Shown piece after piece: positions 1 to 50,149 of a stretch of 64,000 bases of DNA (positions within the stretch are counted from its first letter, which is position 1; each line of letters starts with the position of its first letter). The notes beneath the pieces were generated by a model that had not been told where the DNA came from, made no database searches, and was given only the letters and a program-made list of their open reading frames with translations. Origin of the DNA: an uncultured Candidatus Saccharibacteria bacterium (GTDB lineage Bacteria > Patescibacteriota > Minisyncoccia > Phycocordibacterales > UBA918). Location: the NCBI GenBank assembly GCA_964593375.1, contig CAZQIF010000001.1, positions 98,185 to 162,184 on the forward strand, written 5' to 3'. The position numbers were made by a program, and so were the translations under genes.

Positions 1-490
1 ACTTACCGAAACCGAAGAGGAAAGCATGGAGCAACTCGAGAAACGTCTCAAGCTCTACCAAATTTTTAGAAACGCCGGAAAAATTGTTGAACAAGCATTT
101 GGTCGAAAGATGCTGTATGAGCGCACCTTTGTGTTTGATGAGACGCCACTTTTTGTAACCGATAACTACACCAATGTTTCTGCACTCACAAGTGCAATTG
201 CTGAAGTAGTCACTCGATTGCCGAAAAAAATTGATAAACCGAAAGTGCAGGTACGCAAAGTCGTGTCGCTTGAAGAAATGATTGACCGCCTTAAAGAGCG
301 TGTCGAACGACAGCTTTCATTTAAATTTAAAGATTTTACCGGAAATGCTTCTGAACGCGGGACAATTATAGTTGGTTTCCTTGCGGTACTCGAGATGGTC
401 AAACAGGGAAGTGTGATGGTACGACAAGCAGCACATTACACAGATATTGAAATTGAGCGGGATACAGGGAATGCTCCGAAATATGGATAG
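1..490 (+). CDS. scpA: Segregation and condensation protein A (ScpA), C-terminal part; 5' end lies outside the window
   Basis: The reading frame is open from base 2. The C-terminal motif ...TIIVGFLAVLEMVKQGSVMV is typical of ScpA. ScpB follows downstream. Confidence 0.75.
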   Translation, partial: LTETEEESMEQLEKRLKLYQIFRNAGKIVEQAFGRKMLYERTFVFDETPLFVTDNYTNVSALTSAIAEVVTRLPKKIDKPKVQVRKVVSLEEMIDRLKERVERQLSFKFKDFTGNASERGTIIVGFLAVLEMVKQGSVMVRQAAHYTDIEIERDTGNAPKYG

Positions 491-544
491 TTTGACGCGG
501 AAAAATGCGGATAGCACGCGGATTCATGCGGAAGGGTGAAGAGG

Positions 545-756
545 CGGTGTCATTCCGGGCTTGACCCGGAATCCAGAGTCAGCAAGAAATATTCTAGATC
601 CTGAATCAAGTTCAGGATGACAAATAATACGCTTCTGCGACTATCGGCGTTTATCCGCGTATTTTCTGGATTGCTTCACTTCGTTCGCAATGACAACCAC
701 CGGAAAGCTTCGCTTTCCGGTGGTTGTAATAGCTAAGTGCTAACAGCTATAAGCTA
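545..756. repeat. Structured repeat element, copy A. It has an IR unit gtcattccgggcttgacccggaatccag, a hairpin atcctgaatcaagttcaggat, and a DR unit ctggattgcttcacttcgttcgcaatgac-aaccaccggaaag..ctttccggtggtt followed by gctaagtgctaa words.
   Basis: Several perfect hairpins were read directly from the sequence. Related copies lie at 1161-1300, 17075-17190, 18915-19035 and 37805-37875. Confidence 0.7.
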
Positions 757-762
757 TAATAA

Positions 763-793
763 TTGACTAGTGTGTAACCACTGATATTATTAT
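763..793 (+). promoter_or_regulatory. Putative sigma70-like promoter for the small ORF at 797-1156. The -35 is TTGACT and the -10 is tattat/attatt, with a 17-19 nt spacer.
   Basis: Sequence motif match only. Confidence 0.35.
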
Positions 794-796
794 CAT

Positions 797-1156
797 ATGA
801 AAAAGGTGACTCCCAAAAAACAAGCTAAGAAAAAGCTCTCCTTGAGAGGTGCAAAGATGATTGATGGACTTCATACAAATGATGACGTCAAGCGATACAT
901 TGGTGCAGTTACTGAACATTTTGAACATCAGGTGTCTGCAGTTGCTGAACAATTCGGTTCTGTACAGCAAAAACTTGATTCCCACACAGAAATGATTGGT
1001 CGGCTCATGATTGATGTACAGGAAATCAAGAACGACCTCAAGCAAAAGGTGAATCGTGACGAATTCGCACACCTCGAAAAACGAGTGCTTGCACTTGAAA
1101 TTGGTCGTGGTAGCGACAATCCGCGAACCACTCTGGTAAGAACACCTCATCGATAG
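797..1156 (+). CDS. Hypothetical small basic coiled-coil protein (119 aa), inserted between scpA and scpB
   Basis: An intact ORF with a Lys-rich N-terminus and a heptad-like middle. It is flanked by repeat copies A and B. I recognise no homolog. Confidence 0.4.
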   Translation: MKKVTPKKQAKKKLSLRGAKMIDGLHTNDDVKRYIGAVTEHFEHQVSAVAEQFGSVQQKLDSHTEMIGRLMIDVQEIKNDLKQKVNRDEFAHLEKRVLALEIGRGSDNPRTTLVRTPHR

Positions 1157-1160
1157 TATC

Positions 1161-1300
1161 TAGCTATTAGCACTTGGCTTCTGGATTCCGGGTCAAGCCC
1201 GGAATGACACTGATTTCTGAGTTTTTTCTGGATTGCCACGCTTCGCTCGCAAAGACAACCACCGGAAAGTGAAGCTTTCCGGTGGTTCTAAGCGCTATGT
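1161..1300. repeat. Structured repeat element, copy B. The IR unit ctggattccgggtcaagcccggaatgac at 1181-1208 is the exact reverse complement of the copy A unit at 548-575. The DR unit at 1228-1287 is in the same orientation as in copy A.
   Basis: Direct comparison of the two copies. Confidence 0.7.
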
Positions 1301-1376
1301 GCTTCGGACTACGGTCTAGTCGGTTTATTGACAGGTTGGGGGCGAAAAATGGCCAAAATGTTGGTATACTTTAACT

Positions 1377-1937
1377 ATGGACCTTGAACGGCACATTGAG
1401 GGTGTCCTGTTTTATGAAGCAGAACCCATGACGATTAAAGCTCTCGCGGGTTTTTTTGAACGTACCCCTGAAGAAATTCTTTCAGCAATTGAATCACTTT
1501 CACAAAGACTCCTAAATGGAGCAACACGCATCGTACGAACTGACACCACTGTCGAGCTTGTCACCGCACCTGAAGTAGCAGAGACTATTGAAAAACTTCG
1601 ACGTGATGACCTTAAACGCGACATCGGAAAAGCGGGCGCTGAAACACTTGCGATTATTTTATACAAAGGACAACTAAGTCGCGCTGAAATCGACAACATC
1701 CGAGGAGTGAACTCCTCTTTCATTCTTCGCAACCTACTCGTACGTGGCCTCATTGAACGACGACCACATCCACGCGACCAACGCTCTTTTATGTACGCAA
1801 TTACCTCATCACTTCTTGAACACCTCGGTATTACAAAGCGCGAAGAACTTCCACAATTTGCAGACATCATGAATGCGCTTGATACCTTTGAAAAGGAGCG
1901 AAATGATACACCAGAACAAGTCTCACTCACTGATTAA
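1377..1937 (+). CDS. scpB: Segregation and condensation protein B (ScpB)
   Basis: The N-terminal winged-helix region IEGVLFYEAEPMTIKALA and the RGV.SSFILRNLLVRGLIER motif are typical of ScpB. Confidence 0.9.
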   Translation: MDLERHIEGVLFYEAEPMTIKALAGFFERTPEEILSAIESLSQRLLNGATRIVRTDTTVELVTAPEVAETIEKLRRDDLKRDIGKAGAETLAIILYKGQLSRAEIDNIRGVNSSFILRNLLVRGLIERRPHPRDQRSFMYAITSSLLEHLGITKREELPQFADIMNALDTFEKERNDTPEQVSLTD

Positions 1938-9744: not shown

Positions 9745-9964
9745 AGCATATCTTCATATGCCTCATCTACTGTGTCGTCTGCATCAAAGTGATGGTTCAC
9801 CGTATATGTATACGACTCACACCACTTTGATTTGACTCCTTGTACCTGAGGCATCTGAAGGCATGCTCACAGCTGGTGCTTTTCAGGAGTGCAAACCAAA
9901 CATCTTGTTCTGGATATTTTAATAAACTTTCAACGAGTTCAGTACATACCTTGAGACGTAGGAT

Positions 9965-10006
9965 AGTACCTCTAAAACGACCTCGAGAGGTCATTTTAGA
10001 GGTACT
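9965..10006. repeat. 42-nt near-perfect palindrome agtacctctaaaacgacctcgagaggtcattttagaggtact
   Basis: Read directly. It lies within a 670-bp non-coding stretch upstream of the recombinase gene. Confidence 0.6.
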
Positions 10007-10418
10007 AGAGGTCCCGATACATACATCACACAAAGCGGATGAATAGGACTGGATTCCAGCTCATGGGCCAGAAAGACCAAAATGATGGAAAACAACCAAA
10101 TGAACGAAAAATGGTTTTTTATGATTTTTGCACAATTCAAATTTGTGCACGATATCAACCATCATGAGCAAGGGGAAGTGTGAACTATATTTTAGAAATT
10201 TTCTAACACAAATTACTTTCACACACTTTTTTCTCCGCAACTACAATTTTTTGATTTTCAGAGCAGGGGATAACTTGTTTGATTATATATGGGTAATTCT
10301 AGTATAGTACTGAGTATTAGAGATATTATACTCAGTTACAAGTGCCAGAGAATACCTTGTATTTTCAACACTTCACTCACTCCCCTCTAAGTAGATTGTT
10401 TACTATAATGAAACTGTT

Positions 10419-11390
10419 ATGACAAAGAAAACTACGGGAAAAAATGTGTTTCAACTGCTACCCTACATTGAAGATTTTTTGCTGTATATCCAAGCAAACA
10501 ATTATTCAGAAGAAACTTTATATAACTACGAGCGCGACTTGCTGACGTTCGATGCTTTTCTTTATGATGAAATGAGTAACCTCCCCTTCTCGAGCATAAC
10601 CAAGCGAACGGTCGAACAGTACAAAGCATATTTAAATTCTCGTGATCGAAAAACTGCTTCAGGAGACGATTCTGAACAGCGATTGAAGAGTGGGTCCATT
10701 AATCGTGCACTGACCTCACTTCGCAGGTACCTTGCGTATCTCATCGACATGGACTATGAAGCGCCCGTTGTTCCAGGTTCAATTAAACTCCTTCGTATGG
10801 AGAAGAAGCATGGTCAGGTAGCAGAACTAAATGAACTCATCGAACTCATCGAGTCACCGATGAAATTCGAAAAGGATAAGAGGGTTGCCCTTCGTAATCG
10901 AGCAGCACTTGAAACACTTTTTGCGAGTGGTATGCGTATATCAGAACTCATCAACTTAAAGCGAAACCAACTTGATAAATCTGGCCGAATTTTTATCCAA
11001 GGAAAAGGTAAGAAGCAAAGATTTATCTACCTCACTGAGCGTGCAATTAAGCACATTGGTTTCTATTTAGCAGAGCGTACGGATGACTTCCCCTACCTGT
11101 TTATTCCCGAACGAGGACTCAATGTCAAAGTCAAAAACAAACACATTTCTCCGAATTACCTGCAGATGAAAATAAAAAAATACCGTGAACTACTCGGTAT
11201 TAATGTTCCAACTAGTGCCCACTCACTGCGTCACGGTTTTGCAACATATCTCGCAGAAAAAGGTGCAAACCCTGCTGCCATCCAAATTCTCCTCGGACAT
11301 GAGTCACTTGATACCACCACGAGATACGTGCACGCTTCAGATAAGTATGCCGAGAGTACCCATAAGCAGTTCCACCCATTAAAGAAATGA
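10419..11390 (+). CDS. Tyrosine site-specific recombinase, XerC/XerD family
   Basis: The catalytic motifs RISELINL, HSLRHGFAT and LLGHESLDTTTRYVH are present, the last containing the catalytic Tyr. Confidence 0.85.
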   Translation: MTKKTTGKNVFQLLPYIEDFLLYIQANNYSEETLYNYERDLLTFDAFLYDEMSNLPFSSITKRTVEQYKAYLNSRDRKTASGDDSEQRLKSGSINRALTSLRRYLAYLIDMDYEAPVVPGSIKLLRMEKKHGQVAELNELIELIESPMKFEKDKRVALRNRAALETLFASGMRISELINLKRNQLDKSGRIFIQGKGKKQRFIYLTERAIKHIGFYLAERTDDFPYLFIPERGLNVKVKNKHISPNYLQMKIKKYRELLGINVPTSAHSLRHGFATYLAEKGANPAAIQILLGHESLDTTTRYVHASDKYAESTHKQFHPLKK

Positions 11391-17074: not shown

Positions 17075-17190
17075 TATCATGCCAAAACATAGAAAATAGA
17101 ATATGGAATATGGAATAGTGAATATGAAAACGAGCGATTAGCTGTTAGCACCTAGCTCTTAGAGCTAATCGCTAAGTGCTAACTAACTAC
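17075..17190. repeat. Structured repeat element, copy C. It has a 7-mer tandem (aatatgg)x4 at 17099-17128 and the hairpin agcgattagctgttagcacctagctcttagagctaatcgct at 17133-17173, followed by a gctaagtgctaa word.
   Basis: Read directly. It shares words with copies A, B and D. Confidence 0.6.
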
Positions 17191-18914: not shown

Positions 18915-19035
18915 CTAGCACGTAGCTATTAGCACTTAGCCTCTGGATCGCTTCACTTCGTTCGCGTTGACGACCGGCGCGCGAAGCGCGCCGGTCGTTG
19001 CTAAGTGCTAAAAGCTAGGTGCTAATAGCTTATAT
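18915..19035. repeat. Structured repeat element, copy D. The outer inverted words are agctattagcacttagc / gctaagtgctaa..gctaatagct. The inner sequence is ctggatcgcttcacttcgttcgcgttgac followed by the hairpin gacgaccggcgcgcgaagcgcgccggtcgt.
   Basis: Read directly. It is homologous to the DR unit of copies A and B. Confidence 0.7.
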
Positions 19036-34743: not shown

Positions 34744-34770
34744 TTATTTAGGGGTCCGACCCCTAAATAA
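34744..34770. repeat. Hairpin repeat ttatttaggggtccgacccctaaataa, copy 1 of 3
   Basis: A perfect hairpin immediately 3' of the stop of a minus-strand gene. Copies lie at 36100-36124 and, half-length, at 39405-39422. Confidence 0.7.
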
Positions 34771-36099: not shown

Positions 36100-36124
36100 T
36101 ATTTAGGGGTCTGACCCCTAAATA
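36100..36124. repeat. Hairpin repeat tatttaggggtctgacccctaaata, copy 2
   Basis: A perfect hairpin immediately 3' of the rmuC stop. Confidence 0.7.
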
Positions 36125-36126
36125 AA

Positions 36127-37805: not shown

Positions 37806-37875
37806 TTTGAAACTGGATTCCGGCTCGTCGGCCGGAACGACAACCACCGCGGAAAGTGAAACTTTCCGCGGTGGT
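37805..37875. repeat. Structured repeat element, copy E: ctggattccggctcgtcggccggaacgac-aaccaccgcggaaagtgaaactttccgcggtggtt
   Basis: Two perfect hairpins. It is homologous to the DR unit of copies A and B. Confidence 0.7.
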
Positions 37876-37935
37876 TTGCGTTTTACACAATGTATGGTAT
37901 AATAATACTCAGATAAACCAACAAAGGAGTACATC

Positions 37936-38858: not shown

Positions 38859-38879
38859 ACAGGGAGAACAATTTTCAAA

Positions 38880-38910
38880 CGGGCGGTTCCAAGCAACTTG
38901 GAACCGCCCG
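38880..38910. repeat. Hairpin repeat cgggcggttccaagcaacttggaaccgcccg, copy 1 of 2
   Basis: A perfect 11-bp stem. The same stem recurs at 39370-39400. Confidence 0.7.
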
Positions 38911-38986
38911 TAATTTGTCAGATTGACAAATTGCACCATTTGCTCAATAATCCATGCCAGTACTCTCACCAACAAAGGAGCTTCTC

Positions 38987-39355: not shown

Positions 39356-39369
39356 TTCTACAGACGCAA

Positions 39370-39422
39370 CGGGCGGTTCGGAGTTTCTCTGAACCGCCCG
39401 TGTTTTATTTAGGGGTCCGACC
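39370..39422. repeat. Composite element: hairpin cgggcggttcggagtttctctgaaccgcccg plus T run, followed by a half copy of the atttaggggtccgacc repeat
   Basis: Read directly. It lies between the convergent hypothetical gene and truB. Confidence 0.65.
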
Positions 39423-39423
39423 A

Positions 39424-40095
39424 CTACATAGGGTCTTCTAATGATTGTGCGTCTTCAATTTTGAACTCCCCTACTTTTGTACGTCTCAGATTTTGAAGTG
39501 TTGCTGGGTAGCCGAGTCGTCGTCCAATTTCTTCACCGAGCGAGCGTATGTACGTACCACTTCCCACATTGAACTTTACAGTTAGTACCGCACGATTATT
39601 TTCATACGTAGTATTCAAAAGTTCAATTGCGGTCACTTCCATAGCACGCACCGGTAAGTCGGTTACTTCCTCGCCTGTTTTCTCTGCTTTGCGTGCTCGC
39701 TTATACATCGGCACTCCATCTTTTTTGATTGCTGAGTATGCTGAAACTTCGAGTTCAATCACTCCAACCATGCTCATGAGTACTTCAGAAACTTTTTCTG
39801 ATGGTAGTTCGGGAACGTCACAACTTTCAAGAATTTCACCCTCCATATCTCCAGTACTCCGTTGTTCCCCGATTAGAACTTCTGCAACATACTCTTTTGA
39901 AAGTTTGATGTAGTCGCTCAGTTTTTTTGTCCCCTGCCCCACACCAATAATCATGAGTCCGCTTGCAAGCGGGTCGAGTGTGCCAGCATGCCCCATCTTG
40001 CGAATGCCCAGCTTCCTCCTTAGCCTACGAATCACATCAAAAGACGTTATTCCTTTTGGTTTATCGATAATAAGTATGTCAGAGGCTGTTTCCAT
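39424..40095 (-). CDS. truB: tRNA pseudouridine(55) synthase TruB
   Basis: HAGTLDPLASGL, with the catalytic Asp, is present. Confidence 0.9.
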   Translation of the reverse strand: METASDILIIDKPKGITSFDVIRRLRRKLGIRKMGHAGTLDPLASGLMIIGVGQGTKKLSDYIKLSKEYVAEVLIGEQRSTGDMEGEILESCDVPELPSEKVSEVLMSMVGVIELEVSAYSAIKKDGVPMYKRARKAEKTGEEVTDLPVRAMEVTAIELLNTTYENNRAVLTVKFNVGSGTYIRSLGEEIGRRLGYPATLQNLRRTKVGEFKIEDAQSLEDPM

Positions 40096-44557: not shown

Positions 44558-44629
44558 GGCCTCATCGTCTAACGGTTAGGACAGCTGGTTCTCATCCAGC
44601 AAATCGGGGTTCGATTCCCCGTGAGGTCA
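44558..44629 (+). tRNA. tRNA-Glu (anticodon CTC)
   Basis: A manually folded cloverleaf. The acceptor is GGCCTCA/TGAGGTC, the D arm GTCTAACGGTTAGGAC, the anticodon stem GCTGG/CCAGC with loop TTCTCAT, and the T arm CGGGGTTCGATTCCCCG. Total length is 72 nt and CCA is not encoded. Confidence 0.85.
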
Positions 44630-44644
44630 TGTTACAAAAGCGAG

Positions 44645-44667
44645 CACGTATTAACGTGCCGTTTTTG
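44645..44667 (+). terminator. Intrinsic terminator gcacgtattaacgtgc followed by cgttttt, after the tRNA
   Basis: A perfect 6-bp stem followed by a T run. Confidence 0.6.
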
Positions 44668-44683
44668 TTAATGACCTCACGGG
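44654..44683. repeat. 30-bp direct repeat acgtgccgtttttgttaatgacctcacggg, copy 1. It contains the reverse-complemented tRNA-Glu 3' end. Copy 2 lies at 45692-45720.
   Basis: Direct comparison gives 26 of 29 identical positions. Confidence 0.65.
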
Positions 44684-44834
44684 CAAGAGTGTATAGACAC
44701 TCTTGCAGGGGAATCGAACCACCGGAACGATGTTACATCGTCACGAGTGAGGTGTGTCCCGCGGCACTTAATATTTTGTAAGTGAAGCGCAACAAAATAT
44801 TTAGTGACCGTCAGGATCATTCCCCATGAGGTCA
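44671..44834. pseudogene. Further tRNA-Glu-derived fragments. One is minus-oriented with a T-arm/acceptor-like sequence interrupted by the 22-nt hairpin caagagtgtatagacactcttg. A plus-oriented 3' fragment gatcattccccatgaggtcac lies at 44814-44834.
   Basis: Similarity to the tRNA-Glu T arm and 3' end. No intact cloverleaf could be folded. Confidence 0.45.
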
Positions 44835-44988
44835 CAAATCACCATCAGCAACACGGAGGCCCGGCCTCCGTGTTAACCACTGCAAACCAAACTGATTTAA
44901 ATTCGCCATACTTCTGTTTTTGTGTTATAAATTTAATAGTCTTTGTTATTTGTAAGCCAAACACATAGAGAAAGAAAGGCATTCCAAC

Positions 44989-46279: not shown

Positions 46280-46380
46280 TAATCCAACTTAATACACTGC
46301 ACGGGGCAGGCCTCAGTAGCGTCTTTGTTGGCTTCGAAATTGGCTTCGTCGATTGGTGCGACGACCACGCGATTATTTTT
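46280..46380 (-). pseudogene. Ferredoxin 3'-end remnant encoding ...KNNRVVVAPIDEANFEANKDATEACPVQCIKLD*. It is the displaced copy of the fdx C-terminus.
   Basis: It is about 85% identical to 47018-47118. The first 37 nt, which include the stop codon, are identical. Confidence 0.6.
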
Positions 46381-47026: not shown

Positions 47027-47263
47027 TTAATCCAACTTAATACACTGCACGGGGCAGGCCTCAGCAGCGTCTTTGTTTGCTTCGTAGTCGGCTTCATCAA
47101 TTTGAGCCACCACCATTTTATTCCCTTTCATTTTTCCATTCTGGAGGTCGGACTTCCCATCTTCTTCATTCATCTTCCAATTTTTTGGTGCAAGCATCGA
47201 GCAAGAACCACACCCGATACAGGAGTTACGTTGATGACAAATGATAATTTTTTTGATTCCCAT
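47027..47263 (-). CDS. 4Fe-4S ferredoxin
   Basis: The cluster motifs CIGCGSC and ACPVQC are present. The protein is 78 aa long. Confidence 0.8.
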   Translation of the reverse strand: MGIKKIIICHQRNSCIGCGSCSMLAPKNWKMNEEDGKSDLQNGKMKGNKMVVAQIDEADYEANKDAAEACPVQCIKLD

Positions 47264-49810: not shown

Positions 49811-50149
49811 TTACTTCTTTTTAACTTTTTTCTTTGGAAGCGGAACATGTAAAGCGGTAATACTGATGAGTTCACAAAGCCATTCGCGGTCTTCAATACT
49901 ATCTTCATCGATGCACATAGACACTTTCGCTCCATCGTACGCATAACCTTCTTTGTATCGTTCCCCGACAAACTCTCTCCCATCCTCAGTAATTCTTACG
50001 AATAGTGTATCGTCACAGACAAGTGCAACAACTCTCCCCTCGCAATACAGAGCATACTCACCAAACATTTTCCGTGCAGTAACACCCTCAATTTCTTGAA
50101 GTTGATCGAGTATGTAATCTACTGTTGCTTGACTGGTTGCCATATACAA
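49811..50149 (-). CDS. TfoX/Sxy N-terminal domain protein (competence-regulator-like)
   Basis: MFGEYALYCEGRVVALVCDDTLFV matches the TfoX_N pattern. Confidence 0.7.
   Translation of the reverse strand: MYMATSQATVDYILDQLQEIEGVTARKMFGEYALYCEGRVVALVCDDTLFVRITEDGREFVGERYKEGYAYDGAKVSMCIDEDSIEDREWLCELISITALHVPLPKKKVKKK

Follow-up and report, generated by a model that had tools for sequence, protein, structure and literature searches.

An accessory gene within a mosaic of dispersed hairpin repeats between scpA and scpB of a Candidatus Saccharibacteria bacterium

In an uncultured Candidatus Saccharibacteria bacterium, scpA and scpB are separated by about 830 bp of added DNA carrying a gene of its own, an open reading frame (ORF) for a protein of 119 aa (ORF119), surrounded by hairpin-forming repeats, several of which resemble the Neisseria Transformation Sequence (NTS). 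The locus lies at the left end of a 64,000-nt stretch of contig CAZQIF010000001.1, hereafter the window; searches of the window cover this stretch. The reading we favour, with a probability of about 0.6, is that an accessory gene entered a mosaic of dispersed hairpin repeats by recombination, in the manner of Neisseria intergenic mosaic elements (NIME) and bacterial interspersed mosaic elements (BIME). The locus is best read as a real and fairly ordinary case of genome plasticity, not as a new kind of mobile element.

The window holds the 3' part of scpA, which is in this region 72-100% identical to the complete ScpA genes of two relatives (L001 and L002). The gene ends at position 490 and scpB starts at 1377, leaving a gap of 886 nt; the original prediction for this locus, made from the letters of the window, had given 887 bp, and its coordinates were all borne out to within 1 nt. 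Comparison was made with five candidate-phyla-radiation relatives retrieved by a ScpB scan with one genome per species (L001-L005, labelled Saccharibacteria, Vogelbacteria and Paceibacterota) and with the closest relative, L114, whose ScpB, found in a separate protein search, is 89% identical; ScpB identity across the six ranges from 44 to 89%. Their scpA-scpB gaps measure 66 bp (L001), 144 bp (L002), ~25-35 bp (L003-L005) and 165 bp (L114), and no ORF lies between the two genes in any of the six. A three-way alignment displays one large gap, reaching from 2 nt past the scpA stop to ~1311-1324, and the last ~52 bp ahead of scpB are conserved. Since scpA and scpB are adjacent in the six relatives, with no gene between them, the alignments identify the ~830 bp (roughly 493 to 1311-1324) as a gain specific to the window lineage. 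The insertion that had been read into the long spacing therefore withstood alignment with relatives, all six of which have a short, gene-free spacer; the claim of a split operon was overstated, because scpB keeps its conserved proximal block and the relatives' genes are also parted by non-coding spacers.

That ORF119 stood between the two genes ancestrally and was lost in the relatives is very improbable. The comparison comprises only six relatives, and candidate-phyla-radiation genomes are prone to gene loss; however, ORF119 is missing from all six, at ScpB identities from 89% down to 44%, and neither scpA nor scpB occurs within 3 kb of an ORF119 homologue in any of ~85 loci, which makes a single gain more parsimonious than several losses. 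Furthermore, the spacer of L114 gives the order of events. It contains an AGC/TA-rich stretch, a GGAAAGC...GCTTTCC hairpin, a CTAAGTG-type module and then the conserved scpB block; this single unit is homologous to the direct-repeat unit of the window, and there is neither ORF119 nor any NTS-like hairpin in that spacer. As L114 has one unit without the gene, this comparison places the hairpin unit in the spacer before the arrival of ORF119. The window's spacer now has two co-oriented units with ORF119 between them, and the whole locus is laid out as follows (U, NTS-like hairpins; hp2, GC-rich hairpins; F and R, the two orientations of an AGC/TA-rich module).

2-490, plus strand: 3' part of scpA, running off the left end of the window (Pfam PF02616, 27.9 bits)
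495-662, no strand: imperfect palindrome of ~170 nt, arms at ~495-540 and ~625-662, enclosing two NTS-like hairpins (inverted-repeat search)
549-576, plus strand: U1, NTS/SRM-like hairpin GTCATTCCGGGCTTGACCCGGAATCCAG, left arm of the 31-nt inverted repeat
594-621, minus strand: U2, NTS-like hairpin, GTCATCCTGAACTTGATTCAGGATCTAG on the minus strand
666-695, minus strand: U3, NTS-like hairpin with imperfect stem, GTCATTGCGAA...GCAATCCAG on the minus strand, first half of direct-repeat copy 1
695-725, plus strand: hp2a, GC-rich, terminator-like hairpin with a 13-bp perfect stem, extendable to 692-728, downstream of scpA
727-757, plus strand: AGC/TA-rich module in F orientation, inverted partner at 1153-1179 (inverted repeat of 27 nt, 81%)
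763-790, plus strand: sigma-70-type promoter sequence, TTGACT, 16 nt, (TG)TATTAT, 6 nt before ATG, leaderless-type
797-1156, plus strand: ORF119, 119 aa, Lys-rich N-terminus followed by a coiled coil, uncharacterised family
1153-1179, plus strand: AGC/TA-rich module in R orientation
1181-1208, minus strand: U4, NTS/SRM-like hairpin, identical to U1 in inverted orientation and forming the right arm of the 31-nt inverted repeat
1228-1257, minus strand: U5, NTS-like hairpin, degenerate counterpart of U3, making up the first half of direct-repeat copy 2
1257-1287, plus strand: hp2b, GC-rich, terminator-like hairpin with a 13-bp perfect stem, downstream of ORF119
1288-1322, plus strand: degenerate F-like module and short palindrome, aligning with the AGC/TA-rich module of the L114 spacer
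1323-1376, plus strand: ancestral scpB-proximal block with TTATTGACAGG and TGGTATACT, conserved in L001, L002 and L114
1377-1937, plus strand: scpB (Pfam PF04079, E = 3.4e-35)

The repeats that bracket ORF119 are far from chance. The arms of the inverted repeat (547-577 and 1180-1210, 31 nt, 100% complementary) contain a 28-mer, at 549-576 and 1181-1208, of a kind not expected at all in shuffles; its first arm had been placed one position earlier, at 548-575. The direct repeat, previously taken as ~60 nt, extends over 88 nt (654-741 and 1216-1303, 82% identical, none expected in shuffles), with a core that is 86% identical (662-725 and 1224-1287), and each copy indeed has near its 3' end a perfect hairpin, as described before, with a stem of 13 bp (695-725 and 1257-1287), which is likewise not expected by chance. 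Three further features came to light: the hairpin at 594-621, the ~170-nt palindrome at 495-662, for which neither the window nor the fetched loci yielded a second copy, and the inverted AGC/TA-rich pair 731-757/1153-1179, which immediately brackets the promoter and ORF119. The RNA fold of 491-796 reaches -117.9 kcal/mol (z = -8.1). Rfam at gathering thresholds gave tRNA-Glu as its sole match in the whole window and a permissive scan of 400-1500 gave only a chance mir-30 match on a hairpin; with no significant match in the spacer, a known structured RNA was rejected. A Logan contig from another sample (SRR12762274_252123, L113) is identical to the window from 1181 on and begins exactly at the 31-nt inverted repeat, a break which indicates that this repeat interrupts k-mer assemblies.

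The same modules are also found outside the spacer, where two stand-alone units occur.

18916-19024, plus strand: R module, NTS-like hairpin (CTGGAT...GAC), GC hairpin and F module; 109 bp with 25-nt inverted ends
37813-37882, plus strand: NTS-like hairpin and GC hairpin, directly after a yqeY-like gene

The first of these sits between two convergent genes, ung (recognised by inspection of its translation) and a FeeM-family gene. AGC/TA-rich modules recur at 17139-17183, where an R-F pair stands alone, and at 18916-18940 and 19000-19031, and a single NTS-like hairpin lies at 10049-10077; the window holds eight NTS-like hairpins, five of them in the scpA-scpB spacer. All four two-hairpin units are found downstream of a plus-strand gene and in one orientation (scpA, ORF119, ung and the yqeY-like gene). 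The unit starts at most 10 nt past the stop codon of ORF119, ung and the yqeY-like gene, as it does after scpA in L114; that of scpA in the window is 174 nt downstream of the stop, beyond the ~170-nt palindrome. When the four copies are folded as an alignment, both hairpins are predicted, and 6 of the 20 pairs show compensatory changes, among them a two-base insertion in each arm of a single copy. Since the modules stand alone at three other intergenic sites of the window, they are not the ends of one element resembling a miniature inverted-repeat transposable element (MITE); judged from these copies, the repeats are dispersed modules with conserved structure and not private element ends.

The small hairpins are close to, but not formally members of, a known class. 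The NTS, CGTCATTCCCGCGMAVGCGGGAATCYRG, is the dRS3 repeat in its longer form; it is targeted by SsnA, a single-strand-specific GIY-YIG nuclease whose cleavage and binding depend most on the triplet before the palindrome and the C behind it (PMC11893778). Read on their own strand, all eight hairpins of the window consist of GTC, a stem-loop and ATC(C/T)AG, and all eight retain the GTC before the palindrome and the C behind it that are reported to be critical for SsnA. U1 shares both GTCATTCC and GGAATCCAG with the NTS consensus, the two flanks being identical. U1, U2, U4 and U7 are hairpin-forming inverted repeats within the range of 20-50 nt, with perfect 8-bp stems that are also seen in folds. 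Strict NTS-like matches number 5 in the window versus 0.56 on average, and 3 at most, in 100 shuffles. On the other hand, the hairpins pass neither of the published searches, for NTS with at most 1 mismatch or for the degenerate SRM pattern (PMC11893778). The latter, in an implementation that does match the NTS consensus, has no exact match in the window; U1, U4 and U5 fit it only when one substitution is allowed, and two are still too few for the other units.

As in the NTS/dRS3/SRM systems (PMC11893778), the hairpins are ~28 nt long, are oriented by a 5' GTCATTCC and a 3' GGAATCCAG, are intergenic, cluster near particular genes and adopt an NTS-gene-NTS arrangement, and related copies occur in Sphingomonadaceae, a group listed as SRM-rich (PMC11893778). 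They differ in the stem core, which is CCGGG/CCCGG here and CCCGCG/GCGGG in NTS, in falling outside the published patterns, in number, with only eight units in 64 kb, and in host, the candidate phyla radiation being absent from the main text of PMC11893778. Furthermore, no ssn gene (GIY-YIG, cd10448), a gene often flanked by the motif in those systems, was found in the window by tblastn with an approximate probe, a GIY-YIG motif search and a Pfam scan of ORFs, 14 of which were small (80-119 aa) and 6 longer; the same approximate tblastn probe had no match in the fetched loci either.

The inverted-repeat hairpin is also widespread. U1's exact 26-mer core, loop included, was found on 14 stretches of IMG/VR viral contigs (GC 0.44-0.64), with up to 18 co-oriented copies in 7 kb of a viral contig and some copies inside ORFs, and plasmids of Sphingomonadaceae, Rhizobium, Bosea and Sulfurovum carry copies with two mismatches. 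The occurrence of this core on unrelated viral contigs and plasmids means that the identity of U1 and U4 reflects a conserved, widespread hairpin and is no proof of two element ends; across the genomes compared, the hairpin behaves as a widespread repeat of conserved sequence and not as the private end of an element. Of the IMG/VR contigs, 3300025714_000452 (L115, 2800-6550) and 3300003667_000196 (L128) bear 12 and 18 co-oriented copies of GTCATTCCGGGCT(T/C)GACCCGGAATCC, usually after CCAC, several of them inside long ORFs and translated RHSGLDPES.

It had been proposed that the whole block is a MITE-like or hairpin-bounded insertion with a cargo gene. The insertion, the gene and the structured repeats are all real; the single MITE-like element did not hold, given dispersed modules, no target-site duplication and one copy. 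In its broader form, this proposal makes the block one non-autonomous mobile element, bounded by hairpins or MITE units and carrying ORF119 as cargo, that would have moved as a unit in trans through an enzyme recognising single-stranded DNA (ssDNA) hairpins: an Ssn-type GIY-YIG enzyme, a Y1/HUH enzyme like TnpA or the transposases associated with repetitive extragenic palindromic (REP) sequences (RAYT), or an IS110-type recombinase. The perfect 31-nt inverted repeat and the 88-nt direct repeat do bracket ORF119, the 109-bp unit at 18916-19024 with its 25-nt inverted ends is itself MITE-like, homologues elsewhere are also hairpin-flanked, with one 94-nt module placed before different genes in locus L056, and the NTS-ssnA-NTS arrangement resembles an insertion sequence (PMC11893778). 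We nevertheless consider such an element unlikely. The flanks, GAGGCGG on the left and TGATTTC on the right, contain no target-site duplication; the block has no second copy in the 64 kb or the fetched loci; the ~85 homologue loci have no flanking homology beyond the hairpin itself; one unit is already present in L114 without the gene; unrelated genomes share the hairpin of which the inverted-repeat arms are copies; and the window yielded no candidate enzyme.

MITEs are, by definition, non-coding. The locus has the short inverted ends, internal structure and, at the level of the 109-bp unit, the multiple copies of a MITE or a MITE-bounded composite, with two units flanking the gene; it differs in having no target-site duplication, no copy of the composite and no known parent transposase, and its left unit is without one inverted end. 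The 31-nt repeat, the 26-nt core of which is found in unrelated genomes, lies inside the inserted block and not at its ends, and the block contains a 119-aa gene with a promoter. A candidate 10-nt duplication at the outer junctions, GCGGAAAAATG at 497-507 and GCGAAAAATG at 1342-1351, is more likely due to chance, because the right copy is ancestral sequence present in L114 too. An integron cassette was also rejected, there being no attC core sites (RYYYAAC / GTTRRRY) in 480-800 or 1140-1380, and the only tyrosine recombinase of the window (10419-11390) matches general phage-integrase models. As for IS200/IS605-type elements, the two direct-repeat units are co-oriented and hairpin-bearing, but one of them predates the gene.

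ORF119 itself, the 119-aa coiled-coil frame of the original prediction, proved to be a gene of a widespread uncharacterised family. A database search retrieved 28 homologues, and a pattern scan of metagenome contigs 189 relatives, in varied contexts and on many contigs labelled groundwater; no identical protein was present in the contig index. The family conserves the motifs DVKRYIGAV.E.F, VSAVAEQF and HTEMIG, with a variable number of heptad-like repeats between them. Compared with the nearest homologue, in locus L031, ORF119 shows 27 synonymous and 10 non-synonymous differences over 68 aligned codons. Nucleotide similarity to that locus is limited to 781-1000, the first two-thirds of ORF119 being 77% identical, and the C-terminal third resembles a different branch of the family (compared with P0003/P0005), so that ORF119, like the family as a whole, is mosaic. 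GC content and GC at third codon positions (GC3) match the host. A viral origin was examined and rejected, as no relative turned up in a scan of IMG/VR viral contigs.

The promoter-like motif attributed to ORF119 is present at 763-790. Taken alone, the match is not above chance (1.8 expected per region), but the layout TTGAC(T/G), 16 nt, TA..AT, 6-7 nt, ATG recurs before the homologues in L028, L029 and L031, three unrelated loci whose upstream sequences are otherwise unalignable. Shine-Dalgarno motifs precede only 1 of 56 genes in crude gene calls of the window, and a -10 box stands 5-8 nt before the ATG of 13 of 56, six of them with a TG extension, figures that suggest widespread leaderless transcripts in this genome. 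scpB has the same leaderless-type layout (1362-1379; 785-799 for ORF119). The scarcity of Shine-Dalgarno motifs and the -10 box at leaderless distance indicate that ORF119 is organised like a native gene, and the pattern of substitutions, conserved motifs and recurrent promoter layout identifies it, at the level of sequence, as a real functional gene with its own promoter.

Searching databases with the protein, as had been advised, returned homologues and no functional family: profile searches (Pfam, PHROG, NCBIfam, PADLOC, PDB) gave only sub-threshold coiled-coil noise. The AlphaFold2 model has long helices at residues 28-81 and 87-104 (pLDDT 68, pTM 0.24). As a weak guess, the product might be an oligomeric coiled coil whose Lys-rich tail binds nucleic acid. 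No link between ORF119 and SMC-ScpAB function emerged from the evidence gathered.

The arrangement of hairpins and promoters suggests how the locus may be transcribed. The position of the two-hairpin units at gene ends and the conservation of their structure fit a role as terminators or insulators, which they would exert on scpA and ORF119. They have the GC-rich stem and the co-oriented position after a stop codon of intrinsic terminators; hp2a and hp2b are without the U-tract, and the GC hairpin copy at 37836-37882 is followed by TTTGCGTTTT. Ahead of scpB, TGGTATACT at 1362-1370, 6 nt before the ATG, is conserved in L001, L002 and L114, and scpB is probably transcribed from this conserved promoter block of its own, so that the insertion would be tolerated at little cost. 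REP/BIME-RAYT systems and elements derived from IS200/IS605, as generally known and as discussed in PMC11893778, are similar in being dispersed extragenic hairpins at gene 3' ends that form mosaics, without target-site duplication and with possible roles in termination and mRNA stability. They differ in that the hairpin consensus here is NTS-type and not REP-type and in that the repeats surround a protein-coding gene; the window ORFs that were scanned include no Y1/HUH gene.

The course of events that we propose is the following. The added DNA would be the self-contained ORF119, with its sigma-70-type promoter at leaderless distance, together with a surrounding mosaic of NTS/dRS3-like hairpins (GTC, stem-loop, ATCCAG; five here), GC hairpins directly after them and AGC/TA-rich modules. 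Incoming DNA, possibly acquired through natural transformation and bearing a similar unit, would have recombined at the unit resident in the spacer and left ORF119 between two direct unit copies, by the entry route proposed for genes flanked by NIME. The two-hairpin units would then end the scpA and ORF119 transcripts, and scpB would start from its own promoter. Recombination at repeat arrays, which serve as proposed substrates for exchange with incoming DNA, has been put forward for Neisseria, including the insertion of array-flanked genes (PMC1797815). As in NIME, short inverted-repeat hairpins form arrays with other repeat families between them, beside variable or accessory genes (PMC1797815): five hairpins are here interleaved with GC hairpins and AGC/TA-rich modules around a gene absent from relatives. 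The locus differs from NIME in the small size of its array, in the fusion of the hairpin to a second GC hairpin as a fixed unit at gene 3' ends, in its phylum, and in its sequence, since U1 reads ATTCCGGG-N5-CCCGGAAT and not ATTCCC-N8-GGGAAT as in dRS3. Saccharibacteria are reported to be naturally competent (bioRxiv 10.1101/2023.05.02.539146 / PMC10187176), and the window encodes a 112-aa protein with a TfoX N-terminal domain (TfoX_N; 49811-50149, minus strand, E = 3.5e-16), of a competence regulator family; both fit with entry by DNA uptake.

Several observations weigh against this proposal. Neither a donor copy nor an empty/filled polymorphism was found, the entry route being only inferred, and the direct-repeat copies are only 82% identical, which implies either an old event or copies of different origin. 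None of the hairpins passes the published searches for NTS and SRM, the 64 kb revealed no GIY-YIG gene of the Ssn type, and ~73 of the 85 ORF119 homologue loci have no such hairpin nearby. Finally, hp2a and hp2b lack a U-tract and a terminator scan calls none at 695-725 or 1257-1287, whereas other terminator-like palindromes of the window do have A/T-rich flanks.

Alternatively, ORF119 may have come first, by illegitimate or homologous recombination independent of repeats, and selfish hairpins may have colonised this non-coding haven afterwards, with neither delivery nor function. Indeed, on unrelated contigs the same hairpin has spread into many sites, ORFs among them, this one spacer is crowded with five of the window's eight NTS-like units, and U1 and U4 are identical while the older direct repeat is only 82% identical. 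Yet the hairpin unit predates the gene, as seen in L114, and the units lie right after stop codons, in one orientation and with a structure kept by compensatory changes. Later colonisation is, in our view, a doubtful explanation, and we retain recombination of an accessory gene into a pre-existing repeat mosaic.

Hairpins are also found beside ORF119 homologues in other lineages. In L047, CGTCATTCCGGGCTCCGACCCGGAATCCAGA lies 40 bp upstream of the homologue; in the L056 group, GTCATTCCCGCGAAAGCGGGAATCT is present on both sides; in L031, looser versions of the NTS-type hairpin flank the gene. In L056 (metagenome contig Ga0210019_1020128, 1-3100), one 94-nt module combining hairpin and promoter precedes the homologue and both of two toxin-antitoxin-like pairs, which are nucleotidyltransferase/HEPN-like as judged from translations and form a tandem duplicate with a 1091-bp period, a cassette-like arrangement. 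Altogether, a hairpin occurs within 400 bp of the homologue in 12 of 85 loci, and the 10 convincing NTS-type cases come from two lineages, one of them heavily redundant, which ties the association to the genome and not to the gene family. A special link between the ORF119 family and NTS hairpins was accordingly not retained, the densities being 0.29 per kb near the gene and 0.12 per kb further off, a difference that is not convincing. One may nonetheless speculate, and we regard it as quite unlikely, that NTS-type ssDNA hairpins and two-hairpin units define exchangeable cassettes in naturally competent candidate-phyla-radiation bacteria, in which small accessory genes with leaderless-type promoters (the ORF119 family, toxin-antitoxin pairs) would be shuffled by an Ssn-like or other hairpin-directed enzyme, the scpA-scpB insertion being one capture.

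Other repeated or structured regions of the window were noted along the way. An 88-nt direct repeat with 88% identity (46280-46367 and 47028-47115, 748 bp apart) lies in a stretch with only short ORFs. The 674 bp of non-coding DNA (9745-10418) upstream of the tyrosine recombinase gene (10419-11390, Phage_integrase) contain a near-perfect 21-bp palindrome (9964-10007) in addition to the NTS-like hairpin at 10049-10077. Two families of intergenic palindromes with A/T-rich flanks (34745-34770, 36100-36125 and 39406-39431; 38878-38916 and 39368-39406) look like shared bidirectional terminators. Finally, the tRNA-Glu gene (44558-44629) is followed by three tRNA-like fragments within 44558-44840, namely an inverted copy of its 3' end (~44670-44683), a T-arm-like sequence on the minus strand (~44709-44731) and a partial direct repeat of its 3' end (~44816-44836), which may be remnants of integration at the tRNA.

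For genome annotation, these hairpins matter in that they yield spurious ORFs and break assemblies. For the organism, the locus indicates that even the conserved scpA-scpB pair accepts the insertion of an accessory gene, because scpB would have a promoter block of its own in this clade. What is known so far of NTS/dRS3-type hairpins comes from Neisseria and other Pseudomonadati, and links them there to a transformation-modulating, single-strand-specific nuclease. That they also surround small accessory genes in candidate-phyla-radiation genomes and on phage-like contigs is the most interesting thread of this analysis; if a partner enzyme exists, such loci would offer concrete substrates for testing gene gain in reduced, naturally competent bacteria.

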